Of a stretch of 64,000 nucleotides of DNA, positions 14 through 63,454 are shown piece by piece. Made by a program: the position numbers and the translations under genes. Origin of the DNA: an uncultured bacterium (GTDB taxonomy: Bacteria > Poribacteria > WGA-4E > WGA-3G). The stretch covers positions 30,253-94,252 of the forward strand of contig CAZGAW010000002.1 of assembly GCA_964523645.1 (NCBI GenBank). Direction: 5' to 3'. The notes under the pieces were generated by a model. That model worked only from the letters and a program-made list of their open reading frames with translations. It searched no databases and was not told the DNA's origin. Position 1 is the first letter of the stretch, and each line of letters opens with the position of its first letter.

Positions 14-38
14 ACTGACAACCGACAACTGACAACTA
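14..38. repeat. heptad-arm repeat, right arm only (ACTGACA ACCGACA ACTGACA ACTA); left arm would lie off-window
   Basis: Three 7-nt units with conserved CYGA core ending in CTA, identical in design to arms at 14200-14243 and 28591-28628. Confidence 0.7.
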
Positions 39-70
39 TTATAACACTTTTGAAAAATATTGCAAAGGTT

Positions 71-99
71 TTGCACCAATTCTTGAGGTATGGTATAAT
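71..99 (+). promoter_or_regulatory. sigma70-type promoter (TTGCAC-17 nt-TGG TATAAT)
   Basis: -35 TTGCAC at 71-76, 17-nt spacer, extended -10 TGgTATAAT at 91-99; would give a ~165-nt leader before ATG 273. Confidence 0.6.
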
Positions 100-240
100 T
101 ACGAAAGTTCCAAAGGTCCGAAGCGTCCTAAAGCTAGGCAAGTTTGCAAGTGTATCTAAAGTTTCAAAATACCTCTTTCAACTTCCCAACTTTACAGATT
201 TTAGAACACTTTACAACTTTCTAAACGTTATCTCACCAAT

Positions 241-272
241 TCACCTGAACGAACCGCAAGGTATCATAAAAA
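241..272 (+). promoter_or_regulatory. conserved leader motif TCACCTGAACGAACCGCAAGG-N12 directly before ATG
   Basis: Near-identical to 17677-17707; related copies at 16531-16569, 37098-23, 59691-724 and 33402-35(-). Confidence 0.7.
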
Positions 273-869
273 ATGGCACGGCAGCTCAGAATGGTACGCA
301 CTAATTTAGAAAATTTACCGGAATTAGAACTTCCGCCAGGCTACGGCATGCGAACCTATCGCGAAGGTGATGAGGCACACTGGGCACGTATTATCAGCGA
401 CTCATTCGGTGGTAGGGAACGCACCGCGCAAGACACGAGGAATGAGATTACCAGCAGAGATGTATTTCTGCCTGATGGATTCTACTTCGCAACACATCAG
501 GATATTCCTGTTGGAACTGCCTGTGCATGGCGGCAATCTGTAGATGAAAAGGATGTCGGATATGTACACATGGTAGGTGTTGTTGCTGAGCACACCGGAC
601 ACAAACTTGGCAAATGGGTGTCCCTCGCTGTTCTTACCTACTTCCGCGACAACGGATTCAAATGCTCAATGCTGGATACCGATGATTTCCGTGTTCCTGC
701 TGTCAAAACTTACCTGAATTTAGGATTTATACCCGTTTACGTTGAAGAGGGTCAATCAAAGCGGTGGCGGGATATTTTTGAGAAGTTGGGGCTACCCGCT
801 ATGTCCGAAGAAATTGCGAACGTTAGAAAAATACTCCCTAAAGAACTATGGGCGAAAGTCTCAAGTTAA
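273..869 (+). CDS. GNAT-family N-acetyltransferase (paralog 1)
   Basis: 198-aa ORF; C-terminal half VGYVHMVGVVAEHTGHKLGKWV...YLNLGFIPV looks like a GNAT acetyl-CoA-binding core; tandem paralog follows. Confidence 0.65.
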   Translation: MARQLRMVRTNLENLPELELPPGYGMRTYREGDEAHWARIISDSFGGRERTAQDTRNEITSRDVFLPDGFYFATHQDIPVGTACAWRQSVDEKDVGYVHMVGVVAEHTGHKLGKWVSLAVLTYFRDNGFKCSMLDTDDFRVPAVKTYLNLGFIPVYVEEGQSKRWRDIFEKLGLPAMSEEIANVRKILPKELWAKVSS

Positions 870-876
870 GAAACGA

Positions 877-1410
877 ATGGAAGATCAACTCAAAATGGCG
901 CGCCACAGTTTGGAAAATCTGCCGACACTCCAATGTCCTGACGGGTATCATATCCGAACCTATCGGCAAGGAGATGAAATATACTGGGCGCGAATAATGG
1001 ATAGAACCTTTGTAGACAACGGAAGAACTGCCGAAGACACCTACGCTAATGTTATTAACCAACCCAATTTTGATCCAGACGGCTTCTGTTTCGCTATCCA
1101 CAATGATGTCCCTATCGGCACGGCGTGTGCTTGGAATAAATGTCTTCGCGGCAAACCTATTGGTTATATTGACATGCTCGCTGTGCTTCCAGAGCACACA
1201 GGACATAAACTCGGCAAATGGTTAACAGTGTTCCTCCTCCACTATTTCAAAGCACAACGTGTGGTGTATGTCATGTTAGACACAGACGATTTTCGACTCC
1301 CCGCAATCAAAAATTATCTCAACCTCGGGTTTGTTCCCGTTTATGCGGGTGAAAGTCACCTGCGACGTTGGCGAAGTATCTTTGAAAAGTTAGGACTTTT
1401 CAAAAAATGA
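877..1410 (+). CDS. GNAT-family N-acetyltransferase (paralog 2)
   Basis: MEDQLKMARHSLENLP aligns with MARQLRMVRTNLENLP of the upstream gene; same EHTGHKLGKW and YLNLGF motifs; start trimmed from ORF-track 742 (overlaps upstream gene) to ATG 877. Confidence 0.65.
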   Translation: MEDQLKMARHSLENLPTLQCPDGYHIRTYRQGDEIYWARIMDRTFVDNGRTAEDTYANVINQPNFDPDGFCFAIHNDVPIGTACAWNKCLRGKPIGYIDMLAVLPEHTGHKLGKWLTVFLLHYFKAQRVVYVMLDTDDFRLPAIKNYLNLGFVPVYAGESHLRRWRSIFEKLGLFKK

Positions 1411-3128
1411 GAGTGCTTCTCGCCGTGAGAAACTGTTTTCGTTTATCGAATAACTTCGTTATATCCGCAATTCTCATCGGCGGCTTCAGTTTCCGACTCA
1501 TCGGCATAACCGTTGGCTTGCCTGATGCTCCCGACCCACGTGAAGTGCTAATCGCACAAGATGTGCTAAATCTCATCCACTTCACAGCACCCCCTGAAAT
1601 CTACAATTGGCCCGGAACAGCATGGTTTTACGTCATTGCTGCGGTGGGCAAATTGCTATCCCTCGTAGGTCTGCCTCTCACGGAAACTCGCGTAATTTTA
1701 TTGGCACGCTGTATCAATACGCTGTTGTCTACAGCGACCCTCTGGTTCACCTATCGCATCGGGGTTCACGGCTACAATAGGCGTGTCGGTCAACTCGCAG
1801 CCGGATTGCTCGCTGTTGCGATGCTACATGCCACCAACGAATCACGTTTTGCACTTGTGGACATTCCCGCAACCTTCTGTGTGACACTGTTTCTTTGGCT
1901 TGTGGCGCGTACGCGTTCTTCTTCAGTTTCTCCTACCTTCCAAACTGCGATATGGCTCGGTGTCATTGCGGGAATCGGTTTCGCCGTCAAATTTACAACC
2001 GTCTTTGCCGGTTTTTCTGTGTTGGTTTTCATTAGAAGTGAGGGTTTTTATAAAAAATTAGCAACAATTATAGGTATTTCTGCATTAACCTTTTCGTTCC
2101 TCTGTCCTTATTGGTTCATTGATCTGGTTTCACCCGAATGGAATCTCTTCTTTGAGGATTTCTGGTATGAAGCAACCCATTATCACCGCGGGCATTTCGG
2201 TCTCATCACTACGGCAGAATCTGGATTATTCCATCGGTTTATCTATTTGTGGACGCTCCTTAAGTGGGGGATGGGCTTGCCACTCGCACTCCTTGTTAGC
2301 TTGGGGGTCTTGTGTGCGCTCGCATCGCTTAAAGCGGTCAGCCGTCAGCAAAAAGGGTTCGTTAAACGGAAACCTCTTGACCGAAAGCCGATAGTTTCCG
2401 ATAATCAACAATTAGAAATACTCCTGCTCGCTTTTGTTGTGCCCTATCTACTCTTTATCGGGGTACACAAGGTTAAGTTTGTGCGTCATCTATTGATACT
2501 CTATCCAGCATTCACGCTGCTTGCCGCTGCCGCACTCACACGTATGCCAAACATTGTGGAGGCACTTCTACAGTCAAGACATTTCACTAAAAAGGTGCCA
2601 CCGAGAGGACTGAGTACATTTCCGGAATGGTTTGGTATAATTTTGGGGAGTGTTGTAGTGCTTTACTCGTTAGTTTACACGCTTGCCTTTGCTTCTATCC
2701 TATTCTCGCAGCCGACGAAGATTGCAGCATCCGATTGGGTAACCGCGCACATTCCTCAGGAAGAATCTATTGCTGTTGCGCCAGAGATCCTATTCAACTG
2801 GCTTCTCCCTGAATTAGACTTCGTAGGAACAGATGAAAAGGTGAAATGGGTGCTTATCCTTGTGCCGGACTATGAAGTGTTCAGAAAATACCAAGAATCT
2901 CCGCAACGGTATCAAGATGAGGATTGGTACCCTCTCAGCGAGATTGAGTTCGAGGAAACGCTCACATTTTACACGCGAGTTTTAAGGGAAGGAAGTCCGT
3001 ATGAATTGCAAAAGACCTTCCGCCGCATACCGAAGTTCTTAGGTATCCAGATCTCCGATGACGGCGCGCCGTTTCCGATGCGAGCCCTTGCACATCCGGA
3101 ACTCCGCATCTACCGGTACCTCAATTGA
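1407..3128 (+). CDS. polytopic membrane protein, GT-C/GT39 (ArnT/PMT)-like glycosyltransferase candidate
   Basis: 573 aa, many hydrophobic helices, ATGA start/stop overlap with the upstream GNAT gene; family assignment by overall layout only. Confidence 0.45.
   Translation: MRVLLAVRNCFRLSNNFVISAILIGGFSFRLIGITVGLPDAPDPREVLIAQDVLNLIHFTAPPEIYNWPGTAWFYVIAAVGKLLSLVGLPLTETRVILLARCINTLLSTATLWFTYRIGVHGYNRRVGQLAAGLLAVAMLHATNESRFALVDIPATFCVTLFLWLVARTRSSSVSPTFQTAIWLGVIAGIGFAVKFTTVFAGFSVLVFIRSEGFYKKLATIIGISALTFSFLCPYWFIDLVSPEWNLFFEDFWYEATHYHRGHFGLITTAESGLFHRFIYLWTLLKWGMGLPLALLVSLGVLCALASLKAVSRQQKGFVKRKPLDRKPIVSDNQQLEILLLAFVVPYLLFIGVHKVKFVRHLLILYPAFTLLAAAALTRMPNIVEALLQSRHFTKKVPPRGLSTFPEWFGIILGSVVVLYSLVYTLAFASILFSQPTKIAASDWVTAHIPQEESIAVAPEILFNWLLPELDFVGTDEKVKWVLILVPDYEVFRKYQESPQRYQDEDWYPLSEIEFEETLTFYTRVLREGSPYELQKTFRRIPKFLGIQISDDGAPFPMRALAHPELRIYRYLN
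2334..2414. repeat. heptad-armed palindromic element inside CDS, in frame (81 bp)
   Basis: GCGGTCAGCCGTCAGCAAAAAGGG-loop-GAAACCTCTT-GACCGAAAGCCGATAG...; encodes KAVSRQQKGFVKRKPLDRKPIVSDNQQ in a loop of the membrane protein. Confidence 0.65.
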
Positions 3129-5188: not shown

Positions 5189-8100
5189 ATGTTACCCGTA
5201 TCACGCGCAATTTTTCCTTATTCATATTTATGTTATTTTTTTCTCCTCACGCTGAACCTGCCTGTCCAGCCTATAAACGCAGCCGATCACGAAGGCGTAG
5301 CAAATCCGCCGCTTCCAACGGCTAACGACTCAGGCAGCGAAACGCAAACATTAATATTCGGGACAACCTCAACAGAAACCTTCAGTTTTGAAGATGTTTA
5401 TCGCATAGAACTCAGTTTAAATGTATCGGGAAATATTGAAATCATTGCTACAGAGGATAATGCCATCGCCGTCACGCTTGAAAAACAGGCACAGGCTACA
5501 AACACAGAACAAGATGACCTGGTTCGCGATTATCTTGATAACATTACCTTGAGAGGAACGCGAAGTGATAACACACTCCAGTTAACGATACGACTGCCGG
5601 GAAATTCTCCTCAAACCGAACCAAACCCACTTTCTAATATAGGCGAATCACAAGCGATACGCTCTGATGGACTTCAACTGAAATGTACAATTAAAACCCC
5701 AGCGGATGTCGCTGTTAAACTCCAGGCAAAAGTTGGAGATATACACCTTCAGCGTATCCGAGGGAAGATAGAAGCTTCGACAGGGACAGGAAACGTCCAT
5801 TTAAGTGAAACCTTAGGCAACTATAACATCAGTGTAACCCAGGGCAACATTGACGGGAAAATTTTGCTGACCCACGGACAAAACAAGTTGGAAACCCAAA
5901 ATGGCGCAATTGGATTGGTAATACTTGACCGTGTTGCAGCACCCATGGATATAACCGCTCAAGGGGGCAGCATCCGTTTACGACTTCCTGAGAATTATGC
6001 TGCGGATGTTGAATTTGAGAGTGAGAAACAGCAAATCGTTATTAATTTGCCCGTACAACTGGACGAGGAAACCGGATTAACCCTTATTAACGACGGGGGT
6101 CCACTGTTCCGGTTGAAAGCCACCGACGCGATTTCTCTACTACCGAGTTCACCAGGCGGCGAAAACACACCCATAGATGCTGAAGCGGATCCATTCATAG
6201 ATGCCGTTCAACCTGTCCCACAAATAGCAGCCCACCCCACTATTGATGGCGATTTATCTGAAATCGCTTGGCAATCAGCCGCGCGACTCTCCCCGTTCCA
6301 AAATCCAGATGGTACTGATGTGCCAAACAATCCAACTGAAACTTTTTTAATGTGGGATGCCGAGAATTTTTATGTCGGTGTAAAAGCCTATCTGTCTGAT
6401 TCATATCTTCCGTATATCTCACAAACGCAGCAGGATTCACCAATTTGGGAGGACGAATGTATCGAAATCCTAATTGATTCTAATCCGGAAACTGATACCT
6501 ATTATCATCTTGTCATCAATCCAATTAACGCGTATTTTGACCAGCAGGTGAATACATCTGGCGAGCCCAATTTTCGGTTTGCACCTCATGATGTCCAACG
6601 GACTTTAAGCCAGAAAACAATGCAAACGGCGTTCAAAGCGGATAGCGCGTGGAACTCAGAGGCGAAAGTTGCCAGCCAAATTAACAGCACTTTTTGGAGT
6701 CTTGAAGTTTCACTTCCGCGTAAAATGTTAGAATCCGTTTCAAAAGTGGATTCGCAGCCGACATCCCCTTTTGAAAACAAGTGGCTTTTTAATATCCACC
6801 GTAAGATGCACAGTAGCAATATGAAGAGCCTTATACCTGCTACGTCCAGAGAATATAGTTACTGGCTGCCAATTTACGATAACGAGCATCCGTGGTGGCC
6901 GCATTCGCCACAAGAGTATACGGGACCGCTTTCAAAACGCAATGGACCCGCAATGGGTGTCTTAGAATTCATAGCGACCCCGCCTACCGCTGAAGATTTT
7001 GCATCCGAAACAAAATTTCAGGTTGCTGCTATTGAAATTAAAGGGAACACCACGATTCCAACAGAGGTCATCCAACAGTCACTTCCCATCCAACCTGGGG
7101 ATATTATCACAAGTCCGCAGCTTTCTTGGTTGATCGCGGAATTGGGGGAACAGGACCGGTTCCAAGACGTGCGTTTGGAAACTAAGCAGGTCAGTATTGA
7201 CAGTGAAGAAACCATTAACAGTCAGCAATCAGAAATCAGTAACCAGCAGGCAGGTGTGAATGCATCGGAAACCTCTGTACCGATGGCTGAAAACCGACAA
7301 TTGAAAGCCATTCCAAGTGTCAGTTTGCATATCCGAGTTACAGAAACCCTTGTGCTTTTTGTCGAGCAAATCGAGATCAAAGGAAATAGGAGTTTCCCTG
7401 CGCAATTCATTAAAGAGTGGTTTCAGTTAGAATCCGGCTATCTCGCTGTTGCAGTTGTTATACTAAAACAACAATTAATTGCTGATTTTTATTCAAATCG
7501 CGGATATGAATTCGCCACGGTTACGTATCAATCTACCGACAATGTACTTGAATTTAACGTCAACGAGGGAACATTGCACGAAATTCGTTTCACTGGTAAC
7601 ACGCAAATCTCGCGGGCGGAACTGTTGTCAGCACTTGACTTAAAGACTGAAGATAACGATGAAAAACAAGGTTCACAAACTTCGGATATCTACCATCATG
7701 CGCTTGGTCAATCGAAAATAAACCGTATGCGCAAAGAGCTCAGCGAAAACAGCGAACATTTCAGATCAATACGGGATTGGCGTGTTCAGCGCGAAGGTGG
7801 AAAAAACATCATGATTGTTGAAATTGAAGAACGTCCATTAGTGAGACCGGGGGGGTTCCCAATTCTTCAATTCAATCGTGTTCACGGGTTAATGCTTGGC
7901 GCGGGGGGAAGACTCTCGACGCATCTCACGGGTAAGGAACAGGTTTTCGGTTCAATAAGCCGTGGATTTTCGAGCAAAATATGGAACTATCACGCCGGTA
8001 TAGAAAAAGGGGTCCTTAAACGGCAGCCCCTCAGGTTCGGAGGTAGTTTCTATAAACTCACCGATATTAGCTCCAGCGTCTATTTGGGGCCTACTGAGGT

Positions 8101-8968
8101 TAATCTGAGTGCTGCTTATTACGGTTTCGCACTTCAGGATTATTACGAGCGTCAGGGCTCGCGCGGATGGATAACGTATGCACCATCAGAATCGACCTAT
8201 CTTAAAATGGAATTCACAGGCGAGAGACACGGTAACCTTTCCAAATCGACGGATTGGAGTTACTTAAACCGAAATCGACTCAAGCGCGGGAATTCGCGGA
8301 TTAACCGTGGACACTTGAGAAGCCTTTCTCTCGTTTATGCCTTTGATACACGAGACCACAAATCCGCTATCACACGGCATTTTCATACCTTGTTTCGTGC
8401 AAATGAACGGACCCGACGCGGGTGGCGCGGTCAATTTGTAATTGAGATGGCAGGACAGGACTTTGGCGGGGACTACACCTTTAGTCGTTTTGGATTTGAA
8501 TTGGCACGCTACACACCTTTGTCGAATCTACATCACTTAAACGTTCGGATTGGCGGCGATTTTTCTGATGCACCCCTACCCAGACAACGCCTCCTGCATC
8601 TTGGCGGTGCTAATAACCTGCGTGGTTACAATTTTAACGCCTTCGCTGGGGATAACAGGCTTCTGATTAACCTTGAGTATCGACTCATCAAAGAGATAAT
8701 TCCGAGCGATCAAGATGCTGTAATCGGGTGGACGCTCAGTTGTTTCTTGGATGCGGGTAATGTGTGGTGGCATGATGATATAACTTCTGATCTTGAGAAC
8801 TTTATAACGCAGATCAAAACGTCAATCGGGGTCGGAGGCTCTGTTTTTGTAGACCCATTCGGGAACTCTGCCCCCTGGAGCCTTGGGGTTGAAGTGGCAG
8901 AACCCCTTAACGCATCTTTTTCCTTACGAAATCCGAGCATCATTCTGCGCTTGGATCGTATGTTTTAA
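5189..8968 (+). CDS. large outer-membrane fusion protein: signal peptide, DUF4097/toastrack-like, CBM9-like, POTRA repeats, Omp85 (D15) beta-barrel
   Basis: 1259 aa. GDIHLQRIRGKIEASTGTGNVHL-type beta-solenoid repeats; IDGDLSEIAWQSA...WDAENFYVGV (CBM9-like); IEIKGNTTIP and IEIKGNRSFP (POTRA); aromatic-rich C-terminal barrel ending in F. Confidence 0.6.
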   Translation: MLPVSRAIFPYSYLCYFFLLTLNLPVQPINAADHEGVANPPLPTANDSGSETQTLIFGTTSTETFSFEDVYRIELSLNVSGNIEIIATEDNAIAVTLEKQAQATNTEQDDLVRDYLDNITLRGTRSDNTLQLTIRLPGNSPQTEPNPLSNIGESQAIRSDGLQLKCTIKTPADVAVKLQAKVGDIHLQRIRGKIEASTGTGNVHLSETLGNYNISVTQGNIDGKILLTHGQNKLETQNGAIGLVILDRVAAPMDITAQGGSIRLRLPENYAADVEFESEKQQIVINLPVQLDEETGLTLINDGGPLFRLKATDAISLLPSSPGGENTPIDAEADPFIDAVQPVPQIAAHPTIDGDLSEIAWQSAARLSPFQNPDGTDVPNNPTETFLMWDAENFYVGVKAYLSDSYLPYISQTQQDSPIWEDECIEILIDSNPETDTYYHLVINPINAYFDQQVNTSGEPNFRFAPHDVQRTLSQKTMQTAFKADSAWNSEAKVASQINSTFWSLEVSLPRKMLESVSKVDSQPTSPFENKWLFNIHRKMHSSNMKSLIPATSREYSYWLPIYDNEHPWWPHSPQEYTGPLSKRNGPAMGVLEFIATPPTAEDFASETKFQVAAIEIKGNTTIPTEVIQQSLPIQPGDIITSPQLSWLIAELGEQDRFQDVRLETKQVSIDSEETINSQQSEISNQQAGVNASETSVPMAENRQLKAIPSVSLHIRVTETLVLFVEQIEIKGNRSFPAQFIKEWFQLESGYLAVAVVILKQQLIADFYSNRGYEFATVTYQSTDNVLEFNVNEGTLHEIRFTGNTQISRAELLSALDLKTEDNDEKQGSQTSDIYHHALGQSKINRMRKELSENSEHFRSIRDWRVQREGGKNIMIVEIEERPLVRPGGFPILQFNRVHGLMLGAGGRLSTHLTGKEQVFGSISRGFSSKIWNYHAGIEKGVLKRQPLRFGGSFYKLTDISSSVYLGPTEVNLSAAYYGFALQDYYERQGSRGWITYAPSESTYLKMEFTGERHGNLSKSTDWSYLNRNRLKRGNSRINRGHLRSLSLVYAFDTRDHKSAITRHFHTLFRANERTRRGWRGQFVIEMAGQDFGGDYTFSRFGFELARYTPLSNLHHLNVRIGGDFSDAPLPRQRLLHLGGANNLRGYNFNAFAGDNRLLINLEYRLIKEIIPSDQDAVIGWTLSCFLDAGNVWWHDDITSDLENFITQIKTSIGVGGSVFVDPFGNSAPWSLGVEVAEPLNASFSLRNPSIILRLDRMF
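7219..7310. repeat. heptad-armed palindromic element inside CDS, in frame
   Basis: CAGTCAG CAATCAG AAATCAG TAACCAG CAGGCAGGTGTG-loop-GAAACCTCTG-...GCTGAAA ACCGACA ATTGAAA GCCA; almost the same inner core as the intergenic copy at 20740-20780; encodes NSQQSEISNQQAGVNASETSVPMAENRQLKA in an inter-POTRA linker. Confidence 0.65.
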
Positions 8969-8970: not shown

Positions 8971-9095
8971 GCTGTCAGCAACCTGGGCGTTCGCTTCACT
9001 CACTTTCGGCGGTCAGTCGGGTGTAGCGATTACGTCTCGCGGACATACCATGAAAATCTCTTTGCTGAAAGCCGACAACTGACTGCTGATGGCTA
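8971..9095. repeat. heptad-armed palindromic element (intergenic)
   Basis: Left GCTGTCAGCAACC / CGGTCAGTCGGGTG, right GCTGAAA GCCGACA ACTGACT GCTGATG GCTA; ends 7 nt before ATG 9103. Confidence 0.7.
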
Positions 9096-9102: not shown

Positions 9103-10215
9103 ATGAAAACAACACCACTTTATCCCATGCATGAACAACTCGGTGCAGTATTCGCAAAAAAGCATTCGGATTGGAATATCGCTACTGAATTCACCGATCC
9201 TGTGTCCGAACACCATGCCGTCAGAAACGATGTCGGTATTGCTGATGTGTCCTATCGAGGTAGGTATCGATTGACGGGTGAAGATCGAGCGAAATTTCTA
9301 CACCGTATCATCTCCAATGATGTTGAAGGTCTTTCGGCTGGACAGGGCACTTACGCCATGCTGTTAACACACCGCGGTAAAATCATAGCCGATTTGAATA
9401 TCTCTGTCCTTGAAGATGTAATCAGTATTGATGCCGCCCCTGAAACCACAGAGAGCCTCTTCAACGAATTGGATAAATACATTATTGCTGACGATGTTGA
9501 ACTCTCTGAGGTAACCGCTGAAACTGGAGCGATTGCTGTTCACGGTTCAAAAGCAGCAGACCTCGTTCAAACTGCCCTAGGGATAGACGCACTTGCTGCA
9601 CTGCCAGAGCGACATAACTGCTTGCGTGAAGCAGACGCGCTTTTTGAACATGCTGTTGTCTGTGTAAGAACAGATAGCACTGGCGAAACAGGTTATACGC
9701 TTTACACTGCTGCTGAGGCACTCATACCGCTCTGGGAAATATTAATGACTGAAGGGTCGCGCTTTAACGTTCAGCCAATCGGTTGGAAGGCACTTGAGTC
9801 GCTCCGCATTGAAGCAGGTGTGCCGAGATACGGGACAGAATTGACCGATGCTGTTATCCCGCTTGAAGCTGAGTTGGAACACGCTATCGACTTTGAGAAG
9901 GGCTGTTATATTGGACAAGAAATTGTGGCACGCATGAAGTATCGAGGTCACCCAAATCGCCTCTTGCGCGGTATTGAAATTAAATCGGATTTAACGGCAC
10001 AAGACTGTCATACGTTTTACGCGGGTGCCAAGGTTTTCAACGGCGACAAAGAGGTGGGTTGGCTTACGAGTGCTACCTTTGCTCCGACCCTCGAAAAACC
10101 GATTGCGCTTGGTTATGTTCGGATGGCAGTTACTGAAGCAGGCAGTCGTGTCCAAATTGAAACCTCAGACGGACGTATTGATGGTACGGTCGTACTGCTG
10201 CCCTTTTCAACTTAA
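9103..10215 (+). CDS. ygfZ: folate-binding YgfZ/CAF17-type protein (GcvT aminomethyltransferase fold)
   Basis: GcvT-like N-terminal region plus KGCYIGQE, the signature motif of the YgfZ family. Confidence 0.65.
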   Translation: MKTTPLYPMHEQLGAVFAKKHSDWNIATEFTDPVSEHHAVRNDVGIADVSYRGRYRLTGEDRAKFLHRIISNDVEGLSAGQGTYAMLLTHRGKIIADLNISVLEDVISIDAAPETTESLFNELDKYIIADDVELSEVTAETGAIAVHGSKAADLVQTALGIDALAALPERHNCLREADALFEHAVVCVRTDSTGETGYTLYTAAEALIPLWEILMTEGSRFNVQPIGWKALESLRIEAGVPRYGTELTDAVIPLEAELEHAIDFEKGCYIGQEIVARMKYRGHPNRLLRGIEIKSDLTAQDCHTFYAGAKVFNGDKEVGWLTSATFAPTLEKPIALGYVRMAVTEAGSRVQIETSDGRIDGTVVLLPFST

Positions 10216-10285: not shown

Positions 10286-10334
10286 AACTGAAAACTGAAA
10301 ACTGAAAACTGAAAACTATCACAACTGACAACCA
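10286..10334. repeat. heptad tandem repeat, right-arm type (AACTGAA x4 then ACAACTGACAACCA)
   Basis: Perfect 7-nt periodicity: CTGAAAA CTGAAAA CTGAAAA CTGAAAA CTATCAC AACTGACAACCA. Confidence 0.8.
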
Positions 10335-12309: not shown

Positions 12310-12342
12310 GCACTGACGCAATCTTTCAATAACTTTTTTAGT

Positions 12343-12379
12343 GATAGGCGCGCTTTAACAGCGCACCTATCAAATTTTT
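12343..12379 (+). terminator. rho-independent terminator after the TRAP binding-protein gene
   Basis: GATAGGCGCGC-TTTAACA-GCGCACCTATC followed by AAATTTTT. Confidence 0.65.
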
Positions 12380-12578
12380 GGAACGTGAATTCCATAAAGG
12401 GTGTTTAGCTTAAACTGTATGAAGTTTAAGAATCTAATTCGGTAATGCTGCAGATACCCTCATAAGTGTCAATTTTAAAAAAATTCTATCGTAGGTTGGG
12501 TAGAACGGATAATAATAGAAGATTATCGCTTCAAGAACAATGCATCGGCTGCCCAAGCACCTACCATCGCAAAGATAT

Positions 12579-12651
12579 AGAGTGAAACCCAACAATCTCG
12601 CTGACGTTACCGAACATCTGGGCATAAAAAGTTGGGTTTCGCTCTGTTTTT
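12579..12651 (+). other. long hairpin (15-bp stem, 37-nt loop) followed by a T-tract
   Basis: AGAGTGAAACCCAAC ... GTTGGGTTTCGCTCT then GTTTTT; lies in a ~1-kb gene-free stretch. Confidence 0.5.
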
Positions 12652-13091
12652 AGTGTGATACACAAGCTATAGCGTTGAGAGGCTCTTATGTTATCAGCAT
12701 TACTTTTCTCGGTTCCGCTCTACCTGGCGGAAACACCCAAGCAAAAACACCTACAATGAAAATCGCCCGTTATGGAGCGTTTAGAACCCTTTTACTGCCC
12801 GCATCGGCGCACAACCTACACACTCAATTGACACTTATGGTGCGGTTTCCCAACCACACCGGGCATCGGTGAAAATTACCCGATTAAATTCTTAATCTTC
12901 ATCTGGCATGAAGAAGTCTTTATCTGTAAAGATACCTTCTTGCTCCAGCGGAGCAATATGTCTATAGAAAAGACGGGGAACCTTCTTGCAAGCCGAAGAA
13001 AGTGCTATGTGTCAAGTCAAACAATGCGGCATTAGAAAATGATGAACAGATGTGTATCAAAACCTTTACACAGCCTATAACATCCAAAATG

Positions 13092-13121
13092 TTGTCAAAA
13101 CGCTAAACGATGTGATATAAT
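13092..13121 (+). promoter_or_regulatory. sigma70-type promoter (TTGTCA-18 nt-TGa TATAAT)
   Basis: Seen directly. A second candidate (TTGCTA-18-TATTAT) is at 13283-13312, just before the SD GAGGAGGG. Confidence 0.45.
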
Positions 13122-13339
13122 GCTGTAAAGAAAGGGAACCTGGAAAGTGTGTGGCACTCGCCTGACGACGATTACATACGAAAACAACTTCTCAAACCTA
13201 CGATTTCTATCAACATTGCGTAAGTCCTAAATATCCTAAAAAGCGGAAAACTAAATCGCCCTACCTTAAACGTAAATTTCATTTGCTATTTTCTTGGGGG
13301 GTGTGGTATTATATCCGTTTGAGGAGGGCTTCAAAACTC

Positions 13340-14098
13340 GTGGCATCTATTAATGACATCGCAAACGAATTTATCCGGGAAGAGATTGAAGAGTTCCTGG
13401 AGCAACCTGATGAGATAGCACGTACCATTGACATGTTCGCACAAGCGACACCTGCTATGCAAAACATCGCTGCTGCACTTATCGATGGTGATCATCACAC
13501 TGTGGACGAATTGACGGAAACCGCTCTGGCGGAAGGCACAGAAGCGTTAGAGATTATGGATGACGGACTCATCGCTGGGATGGGGATCGTCGGCATCAAG
13601 TTTCGGGAAAACTTCATCTTTGTGCCAGAGGTCCTGGCGTGTGCCCGGGCAATGAAAGCAGGTATGGCACACATCGAACCGATTCTCTCAGATTCAGGTA
13701 TCGAACCGATCGGTGTAGTGATTATGGGAACCGTCAAGGGCGACCTACACGATATTGGTAAGAATTTATGCATCATGATGTTGCGTGGGGCGGGTTTCGT
13801 CGTACACGATTTAGGTGTTGATACCTCTGAGGATGATTTCATTGAAGCCGTTGAGGAATATGAAGCACCCATTTTGGGAATGTCAGCACTCCTAACGACA
13901 ACAATGCCGAACATGGGAAAGACAATTGACGCTTTTATTGACGAAGACTTACGGGAAGAGGTCAAGATTATGGTAGGCGGTGCACCTGTTACACAAACGT
14001 TTGCCGATGATATGGGTGCCGATGGATACGGCAAAGATGCACTGGCATGCGTTGCACTCGCTAAGCAATTCCTTGAGGCACCGGACGAAGACTGGTAG
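13340..14098 (+). CDS. corrinoid (cobalamin-binding) methyltransferase protein, MtbC/MetH-B12-domain type
   Basis: B12-binding DxHxxG motif GDLHDIGKN, SALLTTT, MVGGAPV, preceded by a helical cap domain. Start set to GTG 13340, 11 nt after SD GAGGAGGG; the ORF-track start is TTG 13283. Confidence 0.8.
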   Translation: MASINDIANEFIREEIEEFLEQPDEIARTIDMFAQATPAMQNIAAALIDGDHHTVDELTETALAEGTEALEIMDDGLIAGMGIVGIKFRENFIFVPEVLACARAMKAGMAHIEPILSDSGIEPIGVVIMGTVKGDLHDIGKNLCIMMLRGAGFVVHDLGVDTSEDDFIEAVEEYEAPILGMSALLTTTMPNMGKTIDAFIDEDLREEVKIMVGGAPVTQTFADDMGADGYGKDALACVALAKQFLEAPDEDW

Positions 14099-14105
14099 GT
14101 AACGG

Positions 14106-14243
14106 CTATCAGTTGTCAGTCGTCAGTTGTCAGTTAAGAGGTTTCTTTGTTACGGCTTATTACACCTTGGCGTACTCCAAGCAAAAATAAATTGTTACCG
14201 AAAGTCTTTTAACTGATAACCGATAACTGATAACTGATAACTA
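14106..14243. repeat. heptad-armed palindromic element (complete, intergenic)
   Basis: Left CTATCAGTTGTCAGTCGTCAGTTGTCAGTTAAGAGGTTTC, right GAAAGTCTTTTAACTGATAACCGATAACTGATAACTGATAACTA; arms are imperfect reverse complements; ends 8 nt before ATG 14252. Confidence 0.85.
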
Positions 14244-14251
14244 ATACAAAT

Positions 14252-16181: not shown

Positions 16182-16416
16182 TATAGGATTAGGACTTACG
16201 CAGCCTGCTCATTTGAGCATCTGACTTTATGGTTTGTGTCTCTTTGTAGCACAAACTTTCCAGTTTGTGTCTCTGTGTAGCACAAACCTTATAGTTTTTG
16301 GCTCTTTGTAGCACAAACTTTCCAGTTTGTGTCAGAAGAACGTGTGTTTTTGCGAGAGTTCCCATCTCACAGGACGGGCTACCGAAACTACAATTGCGTA
16401 AGTCCTGAGGATTATA
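16182..16416. mobile_element. MITE-like element bounded by ~21-bp inverted repeats (TATAGGATTAGGACTTACGCA / TGCGTAAGTCCTGAGGATTATA)
   Basis: Terminal inverted repeats seen directly; the interior carries the 31-bp tandem hairpin array; no ORF. Confidence 0.55.
16232..16334 (+). repeat. 3.3 tandem copies of a 31-bp unit, each containing hairpin GTTTGTG-N11-CACAAAC
   Basis: Copies at 16232-62, 16263-93, 16294-324 and a partial copy at 16325-34; units are contiguous with no spacers. Confidence 0.85.
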
Positions 16417-17646: not shown

Positions 17647-17707
17647 TATACGGAACGAAACTTTCAAGCACCAACCCACCTGAACGAACCGCAAGGAAAA
17701 GTAAAAA
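17647..17707 (+). promoter_or_regulatory. extended leader motif (TATACGGAACG...CACCTGAACGAACCGCAAGGAAAAGTAAAAA) directly before ATG
   Basis: The last 31 nt are nearly identical to 241-272. Confidence 0.7.
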
Positions 17708-19500: not shown

Positions 19501-19628
19501 TAAGATAGTTAGCAGTTGCCAATTTGCCTCACAGTAAGAGATACAAGCGGCGTGTCTTTGCTTGGGGCATCCTCATTTCTTCGGATTTCTTCAAGGCTAT
19601 TCAAACCTTCCTTTAACCGACAACGCTT

Positions 19629-19768
19629 TATAGTAAATCCCACAATTAACTTATACACCAACGGGAAGGCGAGGTTACCAGGGGAAACACCCCAGCAAAA
19701 ACACCTCGCCAGCGACGGAAGGGGGCTTGTGTTTATAGCGTATGCACTTATTTTTAGGATTTACTATA
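19629..19768. mobile_element. MITE-like element with perfect 12-bp TIRs TATAGTAAATCC / GGATTTACTATA (copy 1)
   Basis: The interior aligns, in reverse orientation, with the interior of 23915-24032, including hairpin GGCGAGGT...ACCTCGCC and CAGCGACGGA. Confidence 0.75.
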
Positions 19769-46110: not shown

Positions 46111-46223
46111 TTTTTAACTATTGCTCCTGGGCTAAAGAAATCCCAAGCAAAAACCCCTCCATTTCGTTTCGGGCAGATTTCTGGTTCAGTCTACTGAATT
46201 GGAGCCGTTTGCGGTTTCCAGTA

Positions 46224-59400: not shown

Positions 59401-59679
59401 ATGTCAGACCAAGAATTTCGCGAACGAATTTTGTCGGCGTTGAATGACTTAAAGGATCAGATCAAAACCACTGAAAATCGCACAGAAAAGCGTTTTGATT
59501 CCATAGAAAACCGATTGGATTCTATTGATCAGCGTGTAGGATCGCTTGAGAGAGACGTTGGATGGATTAAAGGAAAATTGGAAGGTAGACAGGAGACAGG
59601 CACACGGTGGGTAAGTTTCATTGCAGTGGGAACAGCGATTGTCTCTGCGGTTATTGCCTTAATCGCTCTTGTGACGTGA
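59401..59679 (+). CDS. small coiled-coil protein with a C-terminal TM anchor
   Basis: 92 aa; repeated RFDSIENRLDSIDQRVGSLERDV heptads, then VSFIAVGTAIVSAVIALIALV. Confidence 0.5.
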   Translation: MSDQEFRERILSALNDLKDQIKTTENRTEKRFDSIENRLDSIDQRVGSLERDVGWIKGKLEGRQETGTRWVSFIAVGTAIVSAVIALIALVT

Positions 59680-59690
59680 ACGTTCAAATT

Positions 59691-59724
59691 TACGCCTAAA
59701 CGAACCGCAAGGAACATTAAAAAA
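59691..59724 (+). promoter_or_regulatory. leader motif copy (TACGCCTAAACGAACCGCAAGGAACATTAAAAAA) directly before ATG of the ECF sigma gene
   Basis: Same AACGAACCGCAAGG-N12/13-ATG design. Confidence 0.65.
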
Positions 59725-60327
59725 ATGTTTGTTTCAGATGAAGATTTGATGGTCAAATGTAGTAAAGGGGATATGAGTGCCTTCGAGTTGTTGGTGCGGC
59801 GCTATCAGAACCCTTTGATTAACTACATTCACCGCGCTATTGACGATTATCAGCGCGCCGAAGACCTCTCCCAAGAGACGTTCCTCCGGGTCTTCAAGAG
59901 TGCAAATCGTTACGAACCAAAGGCATCGTTCAAAAGTTGGCTCTATACAATCGCCACCAATTTATGTCGAAATGAGATCCGGAACCGTACGCGTCGCAAT
60001 ACCTGTTTTCTGGAAGATTTGGTTGAAGAGGGCGAGGATGTTTACCATGCCGACATCATGCGGGATACCCGCTACCTACCAGATTTGCTCGTTGAAAAAA
60101 AAGAACAGAGACAGATTATCCGGAAAGCACTCGCACAATTACCAGAAAATCAACGCGTGGCCCTAACGCTCGTCACCTATCAGGACTTACGGTATGAAGA
60201 TGTAGCGAAAGTTCTTGGATGCTCGGTAGGTGCTGTAAAGGCATTGATTCATCGTGCTCGGCAGAAAATGAGAAAACTGCTCACCAAAGCAGGCATAGGA
60301 GAGGAGAGTCTCAATGCGAAAATATAA
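59725..60327 (+). CDS. ECF (sigma-70 group IV) RNA polymerase sigma factor
   Basis: Region 2 AEDLSQETFLRVF and region 4 LPENQRVALTLVTYQDLRYEDVAKVLGCSVGAVKALIHRARQKM. Confidence 0.85.
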   Translation: MFVSDEDLMVKCSKGDMSAFELLVRRYQNPLINYIHRAIDDYQRAEDLSQETFLRVFKSANRYEPKASFKSWLYTIATNLCRNEIRNRTRRNTCFLEDLVEEGEDVYHADIMRDTRYLPDLLVEKKEQRQIIRKALAQLPENQRVALTLVTYQDLRYEDVAKVLGCSVGAVKALIHRARQKMRKLLTKAGIGEESLNAKI

Positions 60328-60946
60328 ACAGACTGGATTTCGACATGTGCTCAACTCGGAATGTGAAACACAATTTGCGAGTCCAGATGAACTTTCAGCG
60401 TACATTGATAAAGAATTGCCAGCATGGAAACGCCATCTCATCCGCCGGCATCTCAGGAAATGTGCGACTTGTGCGGGGCACATTCAACAGTTAAAACAAA
60501 CAGACCACTTCCTGCGCCAAAGCGATGGGGTTGAAGTCTCTGATGGCTTTTTAAACGATGTAATGATGCGCGTATCGGAAGCAACGAAACACCAGCAACA
60601 ACAGGATTCGCTTTGGGTACGTGCCATGCAATTCATTGGAACATCGCTTGGATGGGCGCGGCACGGTTCAGTACTGACTGACAAGCTTCGGTACAGTATT
60701 CGGACCCGCAGTCCGGTTTATATCTTTGTACTGACCTTCGCTGTTTTTACGATGGTGGGGGCGACGCTTTACCAATCCTCGAGTGATAGATTTGGACAAT
60801 CACGACACACACTGAAGAATTCACAAGAACTCGATGGTGAAAGATTAATTTCCTTTGAGGTTATTCAACACGAGCCACCGAAACGCTTACTTACAACCTA
60901 CCTGAGTCAGCCATCAGCCGTCAGTCGTCAGCCGTCATCAAGATAG
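60314..60946 (+). CDS. anti-sigma factor (zf-HC2) with TM segment
   Basis: HLRKCATCAGH (Hx3Cx2C), overlap with the sigma gene, central TM VYIFVLTFAVFTMVGATL; the last ~14 codons are read from a heptad repeat. Confidence 0.6.
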   Translation: MRKYKQTGFRHVLNSECETQFASPDELSAYIDKELPAWKRHLIRRHLRKCATCAGHIQQLKQTDHFLRQSDGVEVSDGFLNDVMMRVSEATKHQQQQDSLWVRAMQFIGTSLGWARHGSVLTDKLRYSIRTRSPVYIFVLTFAVFTMVGATLYQSSSDRFGQSRHTLKNSQELDGERLISFEVIQHEPPKRLLTTYLSQPSAVSRQPSSR

Positions 60947-60955
60947 CCGATAGCG
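60904..60955. repeat. heptad repeat (left-arm type) forming the 3' end of the anti-sigma ORF
   Basis: GAGTCAG CCATCAG CCGTCAG TCGTCAG CCGTCAT CAAGATAGCCGATAGCG; translated as LSQPSAVSRQPSSR-stop. Confidence 0.7.
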
Positions 60956-60964
60956 AACAAAAAT

Positions 60965-62740
60965 ATGAAGTCTGCAACTCGTAGCGCGTTATTCATTTCA
61001 CTAATGCTCCACCTCTTTTTTTTCATCACGACGTTTTACTTCGTGATGCAGAACCAACCGATCGCGTCCGAGAAGGCGAATTTGGCGGCGGAACTCATTG
61101 CAGTCGAAAACACTTCCCGACCGAAGTCTCCGCTGAAAAAGGTTTCGCCGCGCTTTCTCGCCGCCGAACGCGAGTCCATAGAGCCTCATGTCAGTACTGG
61201 GGAGGCACTCCCCTCTCTCGCAGCCCCTATTGCGGTGAATACTGAAACGTCACGTCCTGCTTTAGGGCGCAGTTTGCAAGCTGAAGTTGAAGCCGAAAAC
61301 CCATCGCCCGCTTTAGACCTGTCAAGAGAAAACTGGGGAGAGGTCAGCACTGCAACCCGCACACTTCAGGATGTTGAGGAAAATTTATCGAAAACGGAAG
61401 CCGCGAGTCCAGCAGGCGATACGACTTTCGGGGCAAAACGTCCTGGTCCGCCGAGGGTTCGGCGCGCCCCAGAGATTTCAACCCTTAAAATAGTAGAAGA
61501 AGAGGAGATAGGATTGTCCGTAGCGCAGCTAGCAGAAATTAATGAAAAGCGGAAAACATTGCCGCATGTCCCGTTTTCGAGGATTATGAAGACGCTCGCA
61601 CAAGAGATTGTCGAAACAAGTGACGGCGGTCCAATTGATGTGGTTTTTGTCATTGACGCCAGCGGTAGTATGGGGGATAATATCAAATCCGTTATAGAAC
61701 ACTTGAGCGAGATGGTGGATGTATATAAAGCCTCTAAAATAAATTACGCACTCGGTGTGACAGAGTTTTGGGCGCGTCAAAAACAGAACGTCATCAAAGT
61801 CGTCCAGTTGACCAAGAGTTTTACCCAGTACAAACGTACCCTCCAAGCGATTTATCCGCATCAGGACGAAAACGCCTTGGATGCCGTCGTTCAGACCGTC
61901 AAAGAACTCCGATTCCGCCCTACATCCAAAAGACATTTCATTCTTGTTACCGATGAACCTTTCACAAGCCGAGACGGATTAGAGGTGGAAGATGCCATCG
62001 CATACTGCCGAGAATTCGGCATCTATGTGAATGTGCTTGGACTTCCTTTCGGTGAACACCAAAGACTTGCTGCTGAAACCGGTGGCAAATGGCATCTCAT
62101 TCCTGAAGCACCACGACCACAAACGGCACAACGTTCCAACAAGCCGATGCATCCGAGAACCAGAGCCGTTTCATTACGCCAAGCGAAATGGGCAGACGTT
62201 ACAAAAGTCGGAGAGGCCGCGCTAAAATTCGGGAGCAACATCCCCGTCGATATTGTTCTATTCGTTGACAGCAGCAAGAGCATGGACGATAAACTTCCAC
62301 ATTTCTTGAAGCAGCTTGATATCCTTGTTCGTGATTGGGATAACGCCTTTGTAGACTATCAAATAGGTGTAGTGCGTTTCAGGTCCCGAGCGTCTGTAAA
62401 CATGATAAACGTTTACAATCCACCGCAAACGCTTGAACAGATCCGGAAAATCGTTGCGCTGCCATGCCAAGACAATGAAATGTTATTGGATGCCGTAGCG
62501 GAGGGGCTACGGCGGTTAAAACTTCGTTCAAATGCGCGCCCGTATTTCATTCTGGTTACAGATGAACCCGCGGACGGTGAATACTCACCCCTCGCGATTA
62601 TCCAAATGTTACAACAAGAACATGCCCTCGTCAGTGTCGTCGGTACCTATGACGACTTTCAGCAGGAAGTCGCGACCAAAACTGGCGGCATCTGGGTACC
62701 TATCCCAGAGGGACATACAACAAATAATTCTTATTGGTAA
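60965..62740 (+). CDS. membrane-anchored protein with two VWA domains
   Basis: N-terminal TM; MIDAS-like DVVFVIDASGSMGDN and DIVLFVDSSKSMDDK. Confidence 0.7.
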   Translation: MKSATRSALFISLMLHLFFFITTFYFVMQNQPIASEKANLAAELIAVENTSRPKSPLKKVSPRFLAAERESIEPHVSTGEALPSLAAPIAVNTETSRPALGRSLQAEVEAENPSPALDLSRENWGEVSTATRTLQDVEENLSKTEAASPAGDTTFGAKRPGPPRVRRAPEISTLKIVEEEEIGLSVAQLAEINEKRKTLPHVPFSRIMKTLAQEIVETSDGGPIDVVFVIDASGSMGDNIKSVIEHLSEMVDVYKASKINYALGVTEFWARQKQNVIKVVQLTKSFTQYKRTLQAIYPHQDENALDAVVQTVKELRFRPTSKRHFILVTDEPFTSRDGLEVEDAIAYCREFGIYVNVLGLPFGEHQRLAAETGGKWHLIPEAPRPQTAQRSNKPMHPRTRAVSLRQAKWADVTKVGEAALKFGSNIPVDIVLFVDSSKSMDDKLPHFLKQLDILVRDWDNAFVDYQIGVVRFRSRASVNMINVYNPPQTLEQIRKIVALPCQDNEMLLDAVAEGLRRLKLRSNARPYFILVTDEPADGEYSPLAIIQMLQQEHALVSVVGTYDDFQQEVATKTGGIWVPIPEGHTTNNSYW

Positions 62741-62750
62741 AGGATCAAGA

Positions 62751-63353
62751 TTGAAGATTGCAGTCCTCGTTTCAGGAAGCGGCACCAACCTACAAACCCT
62801 GATTGAGCAACTACATCAAGACGAAACAAGTGGTATTGAGATCGCAGTCGTCCTCAGTGATCGGCGTAAGGCTTACGCGCTTACACGCGCGAAACGTGCA
62901 AGTATACCGACGCGCGTTGTCAGAACCCAAGATTTTGAAACCCGTCTCGATTTTGACGCAGAAATTTCAAAACTCGTCGAGCACTACGGTGTTGAATTAA
63001 TCGTCCTTGCGGGCTTCATGAAGTTGTTTCAACCTCCCTTCGTCCAGAAATACCGGAACCGGATTATCAACGTCCATCCTACGCTTTTACCGGCGTTTCC
63101 CGGCACTCATCCTGTTGCGGATACATTGGCATACGGTGTGAAAATCGCGGGTGTCACTGTGCATTTCGTTGATGAGGATGTAGATACAGGTCCCATCATT
63201 GCGCAGTCGGCTGTTCCCGTTTTGGATACGGACGACGAAGAAAGTTTACACGACCGAATTCAGGTTGAAGAGCATAAACTCTATCCCGAAGTTATTAAAT
63301 GGTACGCCCAAGGTAGATTAAAAATTGAGGGACGAAAGGTAATAATACAGTAA
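62751..63353 (+). CDS. purN: phosphoribosylglycinamide formyltransferase
   Basis: KIAVLVSGSGTNLQ, INVHPTLLPAFPG, VTVHFVDEDVDTGPIIAQ and VEEHKLYP match PurN throughout. Start set to TTG 62751 after AAAGGA; ORF-track start 62532 overlaps the upstream gene. Confidence 0.85.
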   Translation: MKIAVLVSGSGTNLQTLIEQLHQDETSGIEIAVVLSDRRKAYALTRAKRASIPTRVVRTQDFETRLDFDAEISKLVEHYGVELIVLAGFMKLFQPPFVQKYRNRIINVHPTLLPAFPGTHPVADTLAYGVKIAGVTVHFVDEDVDTGPIIAQSAVPVLDTDDEESLHDRIQVEEHKLYPEVIKWYAQGRLKIEGRKVIIQ

Positions 63354-63454
63354 TCATCGGCAGTCAGTCATCAGTAGAACGTGTAGTGGTTCCGAATCTT
63401 CTATCTACCATAACGTTACTGGGCTGACCGCTGAAAGCCGATTGCTGAAAGCCA
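63353..63454. repeat. heptad-armed palindromic element (intergenic)
   Basis: ATCATCGGCAGTCAGTCATCAGTA - 40 nt - TTACTGGGCTGACCGCTGAAAGCCGATTGCTGAAAGCCA; ends 7 nt before ATG 63462. Confidence 0.75.

Follow-up and report, generated by a model that had tools for sequence, protein, structure and literature searches.

A family of small hairpin-forming elements, each built from two inverted arms of tandem heptanucleotides (heptads) around a conserved core, is dispersed through a 64,000-nucleotide stretch of DNA from an uncultured bacterium (contig CAZGAW010000002.1; hereafter 'the window'). A preliminary description, made from the letters of the window, had proposed such a family, and the family is genuine. 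The elements are probably small non-coding mobile palindromes specific to Poribacteria, with arms made of TAACTGA-class heptamers and a general resemblance to the repetitive extragenic palindromes (REPs) and bacterial interspersed mosaic elements (BIMEs) or to MITEs (miniature transposable elements with inverted repeats) of other bacteria. They occur in either orientation, and insertion is mostly in the short spacer between the stop codon of one gene and the ribosome-binding site (RBS) of the next co-directional gene.

The anatomy of the family was established on 683 kb of poribacterial DNA, consisting of the window and 82 further loci. A complete copy reads AATAG-(nnnTCRG)2-5-TTAAAGAGGTTTCTGAT core hairpin-(CYGAnnn)2-5-CTATT, with the core following the formula T(T/A)AAAGAGGTTTCTGAT..CTCTT. 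The sample holds 188 arrays of at least three units, the commonest units being CTGATAA (85), CTGACAA (61), CTGACTG (57), CTGACGG (43) and CTGAAAA (38); the first of these is the heptamer TAACTGA. Neighbouring arrays within 300 nt of each other stand in left-right order 40 times and in right-left order never (right-right, 7; left-left, 3), and array pairs form outward-facing palindromes only. From this material 92 left-core-right elements were extracted. In the short form, 33-40 nt built on AAGAGGTTTCTGAT ... CTCTT separate the arms; in the long form the interval is ∼77-80 nt and contains the nested palindromes AAGAGGTTT..GTAACAAT..TTGGAATATTCCAA..ATTGTTAC..AAACCTCTT. The core is not symmetric: agreement with the 14-mer reaches at least 11 of 14 positions on one side in roughly half of the elements, and on both sides in only three. 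Elements measure 60-190 nt, carry terminal inverted repeats, have no coding capacity, and differ in arm length always by whole heptads.

Element boundaries are sharp, running from TAG at one end to CTA at the other. The CTA ending seen in the preliminary description is borne out across the family as CYA(T/A)T, most often CTATT, CCATT, CTAAT or CCAAT. CTA or CCA begins 107 of 174 ends, and further out the sequence is unconstrained. Extra modules recur, among them a small hairpin (CTGAAAG-GTTTTC-GCA-GAAAAC-CTTTCAG) and TTGCCTCACAGTGAGAGTT, and their mixture makes a mosaic reminiscent of BIMEs.

Chance and assembly artefact are both ruled out as sources of the arrays. In the window, the pattern CYGANNNCYGANNNCYGA (CYGAnnn three times) has 30 matches, compared with 0.13 ± 0.39 in dinucleotide-preserving shuffles, and arrays of at least three units number 17, compared with 0.06. 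An identical copy of the element at 14106-14243 lies in the interior of three independent Logan contigs, and the family occurs in 40 poribacterial assemblies, including closed chromosomes. The family is not confined to this contig or to faulty junctions; it is genome- and phylum-wide. Eleven window sites had been assigned a single architecture. All 11 do hold period-7 CYGAnnn or nnnTCRG arrays, but the full left arm-core-right arm order is present at only six (8971, 14106, 20721, 28468, 31994 and 63353), the others (14-38, which meets the window edge, 10286, 19768, 21929 and 36815) being one-armed or incomplete. Five copies can be added (2335-2394, 7219-7300, 26773-26807, 27282-27384 and 60904-60960), four of them within long open reading frames (ORFs).

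The elements had also been said to occupy most long intergenic spacers. This holds for 1-37 kb, where 11 of 17 spacers of at least 60 nt contain arrays, but not for 37-64 kb, where one of 15 does; there, all 14 such spacers up to 57.8 kb are free of arrays and the sole occupied one is the last, 62741-63473. A density far above that of typical REP or MITE families was likewise overstated, as the rich part of the window has one element per 4-6 kb and other poribacterial loci are sparser. One element per 4-6 kb is the upper end of the range known for REP, Correia or SMAG families. The ∼25 kb at 37000-62700, with no heptad element in any of 14 spacers of at least 60 nt, encodes AbiU2 (38316-39311), a restriction-modification pair of NotI-like endonuclease (40125-40982) and N6/N4 methylase (40965-42113), TnpB (47336-48427) and a WD40 protein; its GC content falls to 0.42 at 40-44 kb, and it is probably an accessory region of more recent acquisition.

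A pattern scan over one genome per bacterial or archaeal species (AAACCTCT, a gap of 0-8 nt, then three CYGAnnn units) returned at least 117 stretches. Among the matches listed, 82 lie in 40 Candidatus Poribacteria assemblies, many of which are closed chromosomes. The window DNA itself is evidently poribacterial and from a sponge-symbiont genome, because its 26.9-35.0 kb region is syntenic, at 81-84% identity, with a Candidatus Poribacteria chromosome (L050, OZ242029.1); this synteny and the assemblies found by the scan bear out the earlier remark that the gene content is not cyanobacterial. A profile hidden Markov model trained on 30 short-form elements, window copies excluded, matched eight window sites (best E = 2.5e-14) and gave 171 matches in 619 kb of poribacterial loci. 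It gave none in 264 kb of non-poribacterial loci, all of which contain the search pattern, often with CTGA-type arrays. A separate set of 80 metagenome loci (851 kb) was collected with the RACo protein encoded near the window elements; in it the profile matched L122 alone. On these scans the family is lineage-specific to Poribacteria, and the same composite is rejected for other phyla, where CTGA-type arrays occur with no profile match. A literature search found no report of repeats of this sort in Poribacteria, and no description of a composite of TAACTGA-class arms, AAGAGGTTTCTGAT core and CTATT ends.

Long CTGA/TCAG-type arrays were nevertheless seen in metagenome-assembled genomes of Desulfobacterales, Thermodesulfobacteriota, Bacteroidales, Alphaproteobacteria, Acidobacteria and an unclassified bacterium (L014 3760-4510, L029 4184-4320, L055 184-476, L066 6649-6754, L048 1574-1700 and L051 7599-7931), a wider host range than in the 2015 survey of TAACTGA repeats (MacGregor 2015, PMC4679880). 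Some are arranged as inverted sets, with an interior of 460 nt in L014; in L048, six left units are followed by AAAAGAGGTTTAT, three right units and CTATT. Carriage by viruses was considered and set aside, since 12 of 13 pattern matches in IMG/VR are conserved coding sequence. The remaining viral-class contig (L209, IMGVR_UViG_3300035549_000006) has a true element at 423-500, with core, right arm, CCA, Shine-Dalgarno sequence (SD) and ATG (profile E = 1e-9), and represents a poribacterial (pro)phage or else host DNA misclassified as viral.

What we regard as the strongest evidence for mobility is a ∼185-nt composite consisting of TAG, four TTATCAG units, the core, CTGAAAACTGAAAG, a small hairpin, further units and CTA. 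It is 85-94% identical in four species-level genomes (L005, L058, L073 and L109). Similarity begins exactly at the terminal TAG; the sequences on either side cannot be aligned, and the proteins of the flanking ORFs show no similarity to one another at E ≤ 1e-5. Because so similar a composite stands in unrelated flanks in four species, the element appears to disperse as a unit. Presence and absence among relatives were also observed. In the RACo set, arrays occur only in the closest relative, L122/L157 (91% amino-acid identity), and array-free relatives include the syntenic L121 (81%) and marine relatives at 69%. Empty sites, which the preliminary description had suggested looking for in syntenic relatives, were found at the 14106 site, where the spacer is 20-25 nt in L121, L126 and L127; L122 has a different insert of ∼110 nt there.

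Where orthologous copies can be aligned, their conservation exceeds that of 4-fold degenerate sites in the flanking genes. For example, the element at 28468-28628 is ∼96% identical to its L050 counterpart apart from one extra heptad, versus 62% at 4-fold sites. L049 and L060 agree at 84.5-85.4% with heptad gaps counted as mismatches (higher without gaps), versus 73%; L004 and L069 agree at 98-99%, versus 94%; and the arms of 20719 agree with those in L122 at ∼85-90%, versus 60%.

At the site in L050 (2933-3103) that corresponds to window 31950-32099 stands a different palindrome, in which the core position AAGAG..CTCTT is shared and the arms are non-heptad. Such palindromes, seen also at L087 3573-3663, form a second kind with TAAAGT/ACTTTAG-type arm units at a period of ∼9-11 nt.

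Both ends of 87 non-nested elements adjoin gene boundaries. Most have a stop codon 0-7 nt beyond one arm, and in 13 the terminal TAG is itself the stop; a start codon typically lies 5-26 nt outside the opposite arm, often with AAGGAG between. Fifty could be classified on both sides: 43 are co-directional, four convergent and three divergent. Counted by arm end, 66 face a start codon (typically at 5-26 nt) and 63 a stop codon. Spacers vary, some having no SD after the arm and others AAGGAG. The strong side of the core points upstream and downstream equally often (20:20), and start-proximal and stop-proximal arms have the same composition. Of 123 arms, 70 contain stops in all three frames when read outward and 105 in at least two; 116 contain none when read inward. 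Intragenic copies keep the frame and encode AVSRQQ-like peptides, with CCGA in place of CTGA where TGA would fall in frame, and between species they differ in length by multiples of 3 nt. Neither sigma-70 promoters nor intrinsic terminators are predicted in the elements.

Directly 5' of several start codons lies a conserved leader, ..CACCTGAACGAACCGCAAGGAAAAnTAAAAAATG, which holds the SD and starts with a canonical heptad (CTGAnCG). It occurs at window 223-276, 17658-17711, 37074-37127 and 59674-59727, more weakly at 16518-16571, and at L122 5640-5680 and 9960-9998, and could be an 'RBS cassette' derived from an arm.

The mean folding energy of whole elements is -33.2 kcal/mol; with shuffled arms it is -23.6 kcal/mol (t = -16, p = 1e-27). 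The arms therefore pair far better than shuffled controls. Cores alone have a mean z of -1.9, with 45% below -2. Relative to shuffles, the fold of 14096-14254 reaches -57.5 kcal/mol (z -7.7), that of 28462-28631 on the minus strand -55.1 kcal/mol (z -6.4) and that of 20711-20820 -32.5 kcal/mol (z -3.65). Sense and antisense RNA fold equally well (-32.97 and -32.93 kcal/mol); with the 20:20 core orientation and the equal arm composition, this leaves no strand-specific RNA signature relative to transcription. No Rfam family matched at gathering scores or at E ≤ 1, and no tRNA or tmRNA was found.

These observations suggest a history in which an enzyme encoded elsewhere moves, or moved, the element as a unit, possibly into TA. 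Elements would be co-transcribed with the flanking genes and, as RNA or single-stranded DNA, would fold into a single long hairpin (mean -33 kcal/mol), at the base of which the upstream stop and the downstream RBS come together; the nearness of stop to RBS would be the reason why the elements are tolerated in operons. Such intercistronic structures might affect mRNA stability, processing or translational coupling. The arms would evolve by slippage, and some copies would be retained under constraint, the retained ones appearing, from their alignments, to be under purifying selection.

Several results weigh against small mobile palindromes maintained in this way. Conservation above neutral rests on four alignable pairs, and seven other orthologous pairs are replaced or unalignable, among them the pair with the non-heptad palindrome of L050. 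The conserved block shared by 28468-28628 and L050 runs ∼45 nt past the element, and this conservation is possibly a local recombination tract. Neither a transposase nor an autonomous copy with matching ends was found in ∼0.7 Mb of poribacterial sequence. The only long stretch bounded by arms, 2.4 kb in L047, holds proteasome genes and was rejected as an autonomous parent, and a link to the window's TnpB (47336-48427) was rejected since no arrays lie near it. A scan of 30 window ORFs, 20 of them against Pfam-A and 10 against NCBIfam, found no Y1 transposase. Comparison of the 14106 site with L121 gives TGG-TA-[G..C]-TA-ATACA, which is compatible with a TA duplication that is inseparable from the TAG/CTA termini; candidate clean empty sites for a target duplication among close poribacterial relatives were decayed or rearranged. 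No near-identical pair of copies was seen within one genome, at most six blocks being sampled per genome. The 'empty' spacer of L019 and L101 resembles a decayed arm, so arrays may grow or decay in situ.

The hairpin evidence, too, is qualified. A right arm swapped in from another element gives -34.2 kcal/mol, and variable arm positions agree at 46.6% within an element versus 44.7 ± 1.8% for permuted partners. For the short cores RNAalifold yields no consensus structure, and for the long form it gives 22 pairs with no net covariation (covariation term +0.69); there is no covariation evidence for selection on pairing in either. Element-specific arm complementarity and covariation are rejected by these results. 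The claim that each element forms one long hairpin accordingly stands in part: the arms fold far better than shuffles, but they are no more complementary to their own partner than to the arms of other elements. Because of this the long hairpin, while real, is a property of the family consensus and not an element-specific palindrome.

It is rather unlikely that the heptad arrays are functional mRNA sites through which a heptamer-specific RNA-binding protein or ribosome component controls downstream translation, the complementary arm masking the site until the upstream ORF is translated; S1, Csp or CsrA-like binding has been proposed for TAACTGA repeats. The idea draws on the occurrence of the same heptamer just 5' of start codons in Beggiatoaceae, on outward arms that end 5-26 nt 5' of starts, on several genes without an SD after the arm, on a related leader motif (CTGAACGAACCGCAAGGAAAA..ATG) 5' of several genes, on the conservation of some copies above neutral, and on the stop 0-7 nt from the opposite arm, where a ribosome on termination would open the hairpin at its base. 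Yet a normal AAGGAG SD follows many elements, arrays face stops as often as starts and lie also at convergent junctions and within ORFs, start- and stop-proximal arms are alike in composition, and the strands show no asymmetry. Unrelated inserts often take the place of orthologous sites, and no candidate binding protein was identified. We also think it unlikely that the elements are host-selected operon-junction devices, in which the hairpin would loop out the insert and deliver the terminating ribosome to the next RBS, the outward arms would stop translation in every frame, and a putative factor common to Beggiatoaceae, cyanobacteria and Bacteroidetes would read TAACTGA-class heptamers in single-stranded nucleic acid.

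A non-mobile origin in place, with polymerase slippage expanding proto-heptads and template switching copying an arm across a pre-existing hairpin, would make the family convergent. Indels of whole heptads fit such a process, as do the CTGA-type arrays of several unrelated phyla and the over-representation of heptamer repeats in many bacteria, possibly for polymerase reasons (PMC4692102). Moreover, non-repeat sequence in L019 and L101 can be aligned with the right arm of L083, and at 21929 the ancestral ..GATAAGAACCATT resembles an array end. We judge this origin decidedly unlikely, for it leaves unexplained the conserved 14-nt core, the ∼80-nt nested-palindrome core, the auxiliary modules and the fixed CTATT ends at unrelated loci and in unrelated species, the strict left-right arrangement, and the ∼185-nt composite that remains 85-94% identical between unrelated flanks. 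Strong symmetric hairpins just 3' of stop codons, giving the same RNA in both directions, could also be read as bidirectional transcription terminators or insulators that lack a U-tract. This is very unlikely: there is no T-run, the scan predicts no intrinsic terminator at the elements, only four lie at convergent junctions, some copies lie within ORFs, and 43 of the 50 classified on both sides are co-directional, with 5-26 nt to the next start and no predicted promoter. That the elements are integron attC-type recombination sites between gene cassettes is hardly credible, even though they are imperfect palindromes of 60-160 nt directly 3' of the stops of co-oriented genes and their inner junctions, GTTAAGA and TCTTAAC, are each one base off the attC core sites GTTRRRY and RYYYAAC. 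In attC these sites come in the order RYYYAAC ... GTTRRRY, and the two core-like motifs here are in the reverse order. Moreover, the flanking genes have housekeeping roles and keep their synteny in relatives without the elements, the window has no integrase, and some copies lie within ORFs.

As mobile palindromes, the poribacterial elements are closest in behaviour, by analogy, to REP/BIME/REPIN families and MITEs. Like the REPs, BIMEs and REPINs of Proteobacteria, they are high-copy imperfect palindromes in spacers (transcribed in the case of REPs), with mosaic modules and inverted doublets that form long hairpins. REPs are often within ∼15 nt of the upstream stop, and the poribacterial elements lie a few nt from stops. 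Escherichia coli REPs near stop codons reportedly affect upstream translation and mRNA stability (work by Liang, Rudd and Deutscher in 2015). The arms differ in being tandem heptads, not a single 20-40-nt REP, and no RAYT gene was found among the 30 window ORFs scanned. REPs bear a GTAG or CGTC tetranucleotide at one palindrome end (PMC3733652). This tag is absent from the poribacterial ends, the C at the fourth position that CTAC (= GTAG) needs being present in 15%. With MITEs such as Correia (CREE), ERIC and the Rickettsia palindromic elements, they share a size of 60-190 nt, terminal inverted repeats, lack of coding capacity, presence or absence among relatives, insertion beside genes or in frame inside them, a possible TA target and a predicted mRNA hairpin, as well as one element in four unrelated contexts and empty sites in relatives. 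They differ in having no known parent insertion sequence and no demonstrable target duplication, in inverted repeats whose heptad number varies, and in copies that are old and diverged (70-80% identity) and not recent bursts.

The preliminary description knew of no family with this architecture, which is too strong: the arm unit belongs to the TAACTGA heptamer class (PMC4679880), and pairs of convergent, inverted heptamer arrays are known in Xanthomonas (PMC4692102). TAACTGA repeats are found in marine Beggiatoaceae, some cyanobacteria and five Bacteroidetes, as 2-6 tandem copies, often mixed with related heptamers and mostly intergenic, with unknown function (MacGregor 2015, PMC4679880). Their forward orientation faces a nearby start and has stops in every frame, the reverse can be translated and occurs in ORFs, and indels change the length by steps of 7 nt; among 170 sets a single inverted repeat was observed, and the description includes no core element (PMC4679880). 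The poribacterial arms share the heptamer, the tandem (at least two) and intergenic arrangement, the 7-nt indels and the frame asymmetry. In contrast to those direct repeats, they are paired and inverted around a conserved core with CTATT ends, their units are more heterogeneous (CYGAnnn), and an SD often follows the arm; Poribacteria are not among the reported hosts. The Xanthomonas GGGAATC arrays are intergenic heptamers of ∼4 units on average, close to the upstream ORF and variable between related species, and in 70-75 cases per genome two convergent arrays form potential stem-loops, mostly between co-oriented genes (Rehm et al. 2015, PMC4692102). They are an architectural precedent for convergent inverted heptamer pairs between co-oriented genes, although their unit is G-rich (a candidate G-quadruplex), no core hairpin or fixed termini are reported, and the phylum is another. 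The likeness that had been drawn to the short tandemly repeated repetitive (STRR) sequences of heterocystous cyanobacteria is supported, as both are tandem, intergenic, high-copy heptamers containing ACTG or CAGT. STRR units are CCCCAGT, TTGGTCA and CAACAGT. The poribacterial units are CYGAnnn, in core-centred palindromes where STRRs are direct arrays, and their host is not cyanobacterial.

Heptamer arrays (STRRs since ∼1990, TAACTGA since 2015) are abundant in several phyla. Poribacteria add a fourth, unrelated and uncultured phylum, in which this heptamer forms part of an element with clear boundaries and a conserved core. The genomes that carry the family number at least 40 at species level, many of them closed, and offer empty sites, copies in unrelated contexts and conserved orthologues, giving comparative leverage beyond single-genome descriptions. 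Such data would separate mobility from in-situ growth, test selection and guide the search for a mobilizing or binding protein. If true, the operon-junction reading would assign a function to heptamer repeats (STRR, TAACTGA) that have been known for decades. On the practical side, the elements fill operon spacers and extend or interrupt ORFs in frame. When sponge-symbiont genomes are analysed, they will influence gene calling, operon prediction and assembly from short reads. The copies in the window are listed in the table.

Table. Heptad elements and partial copies in the window (positions are those of the window)
Position	Strand	Feature	Context and comparison
1-38		Right arm cut by the window start (ACTGACA ACCGACA ACTGACA ACTA)	
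2335-2394		Short-form element in ORF 1407-3128, in frame, encoding ..AVSRQQKGFVKRKPLDRKPIV..	Profile E = 2.5e-14
7219-7300		Short-form element in ORF 5189-8968, in frame; in-frame unit CCGA, not CTGA	Profile match; left arm conserved in L122, whose interior is 39 nt longer, in frame
8971-9095		Degenerate complete element; left units 9003-9016, right arm 9065-9092, CTA	Stop 8968 to ATG 9103; profile match; L122 carries a different insert
10286-10334	+	Right-type array alone, AACTGAA x4 then ..ACTGACAACCA	Ends 7 nt 5' of SD AGGAGG, gene at 10358
14106-14243		Complete long-form element: 4 left units, AAGAGGTTT..GTTAC..TTGG..CCAA..GTTAC..core, 4 right units, CTA	Stop 14098 to ATG 14252; arms spelled TATCAGTTGTCAGTCGTCAGTTGTCAGTTAAGAGGTTT ... 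AACTGATAACCGATAACTGATAACTGATAACTA
19768-19823		Right-type units around a small hairpin module (CTGAAAAG-ATTTTTTC-TAA-AAAAAGT), ending CTA	
20719-20815		Complete short-form element	Stop 20713 to ATG 20818; profile match; conserved in L122, loop replaced
21929-21974		Half-element: core remnant (CAAGAGAG) and right arm	Convergent gene junction; absent from L122 and L121
26773-26807		Five-unit array in minus-strand ORF 26038-28464, translatable orientation (..AVSRQQSGVSG..)	
27282-27384		Complete element in minus-strand ORF 26038-28464, in frame	In L050 with +21 nt in the loop; profile match
28468-28628		Complete long-form element between two minus-strand genes	Stop 28626 / ATG 28464; terminal CTA is the upstream stop codon
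31994-32075		Short-form element between two minus-strand genes	Profile match
36815-36868		Core hairpin (CAGAGGGGTTTCAAACTCCTT) and four right units	
60904-60960		Left arm read through by ORF 60314-60946 (..SQPSAVSRQPSSR*), then compact core and right remnant	Before ATG 60965
63353-63454		Complete, core-degenerate element ending CCA	3' of stop 63353

Other repeated sequences were seen in the window and in L122. In L122, an unrelated insert of ∼110 nt occupies two spacers (5555-5674 and 9838-9998) that hold heptad elements in the window; it ends CCTGACCGAAyCGyAAGGAAAATTAGAAAAT just 5' of a start codon, and at 9838-9998 a direct repeat of ∼16 nt (AAGAAAATTAGAAAAT) stands on both sides. At window 16232-16333 a 31-nt unit, GTTTGTGTCTCTTTGTAGCACAAACTTTCCA, is repeated in 3.3 tandem copies, each of which is a small hairpin (GTTTGTG..CACAAAC). 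Three Logan contigs covering this region all end at 16261, within the repeat, and L122 has an unrelated 1.5-kb insert there. A direct repeat of ∼40 nt, ACTATCCTTTTSRTCTKAAGSGASTCTATATAGRCAA, which could be a promoter-like sequence or another repeat family, occurs twice 5' of the gene at 20129 (19826-19865 and 20050-20090); between its two copies in L122 (17040-17085 and 17195-17240) lies a clean short-form heptad element. Finally, the 24-mer GGAAACACCCAAGCAAAAACACCT occurs in three long spacers (12729-12752, 19683-19706 and 46135-46158), two of which, 12310-13282 and 19501-20128, are unusually long.

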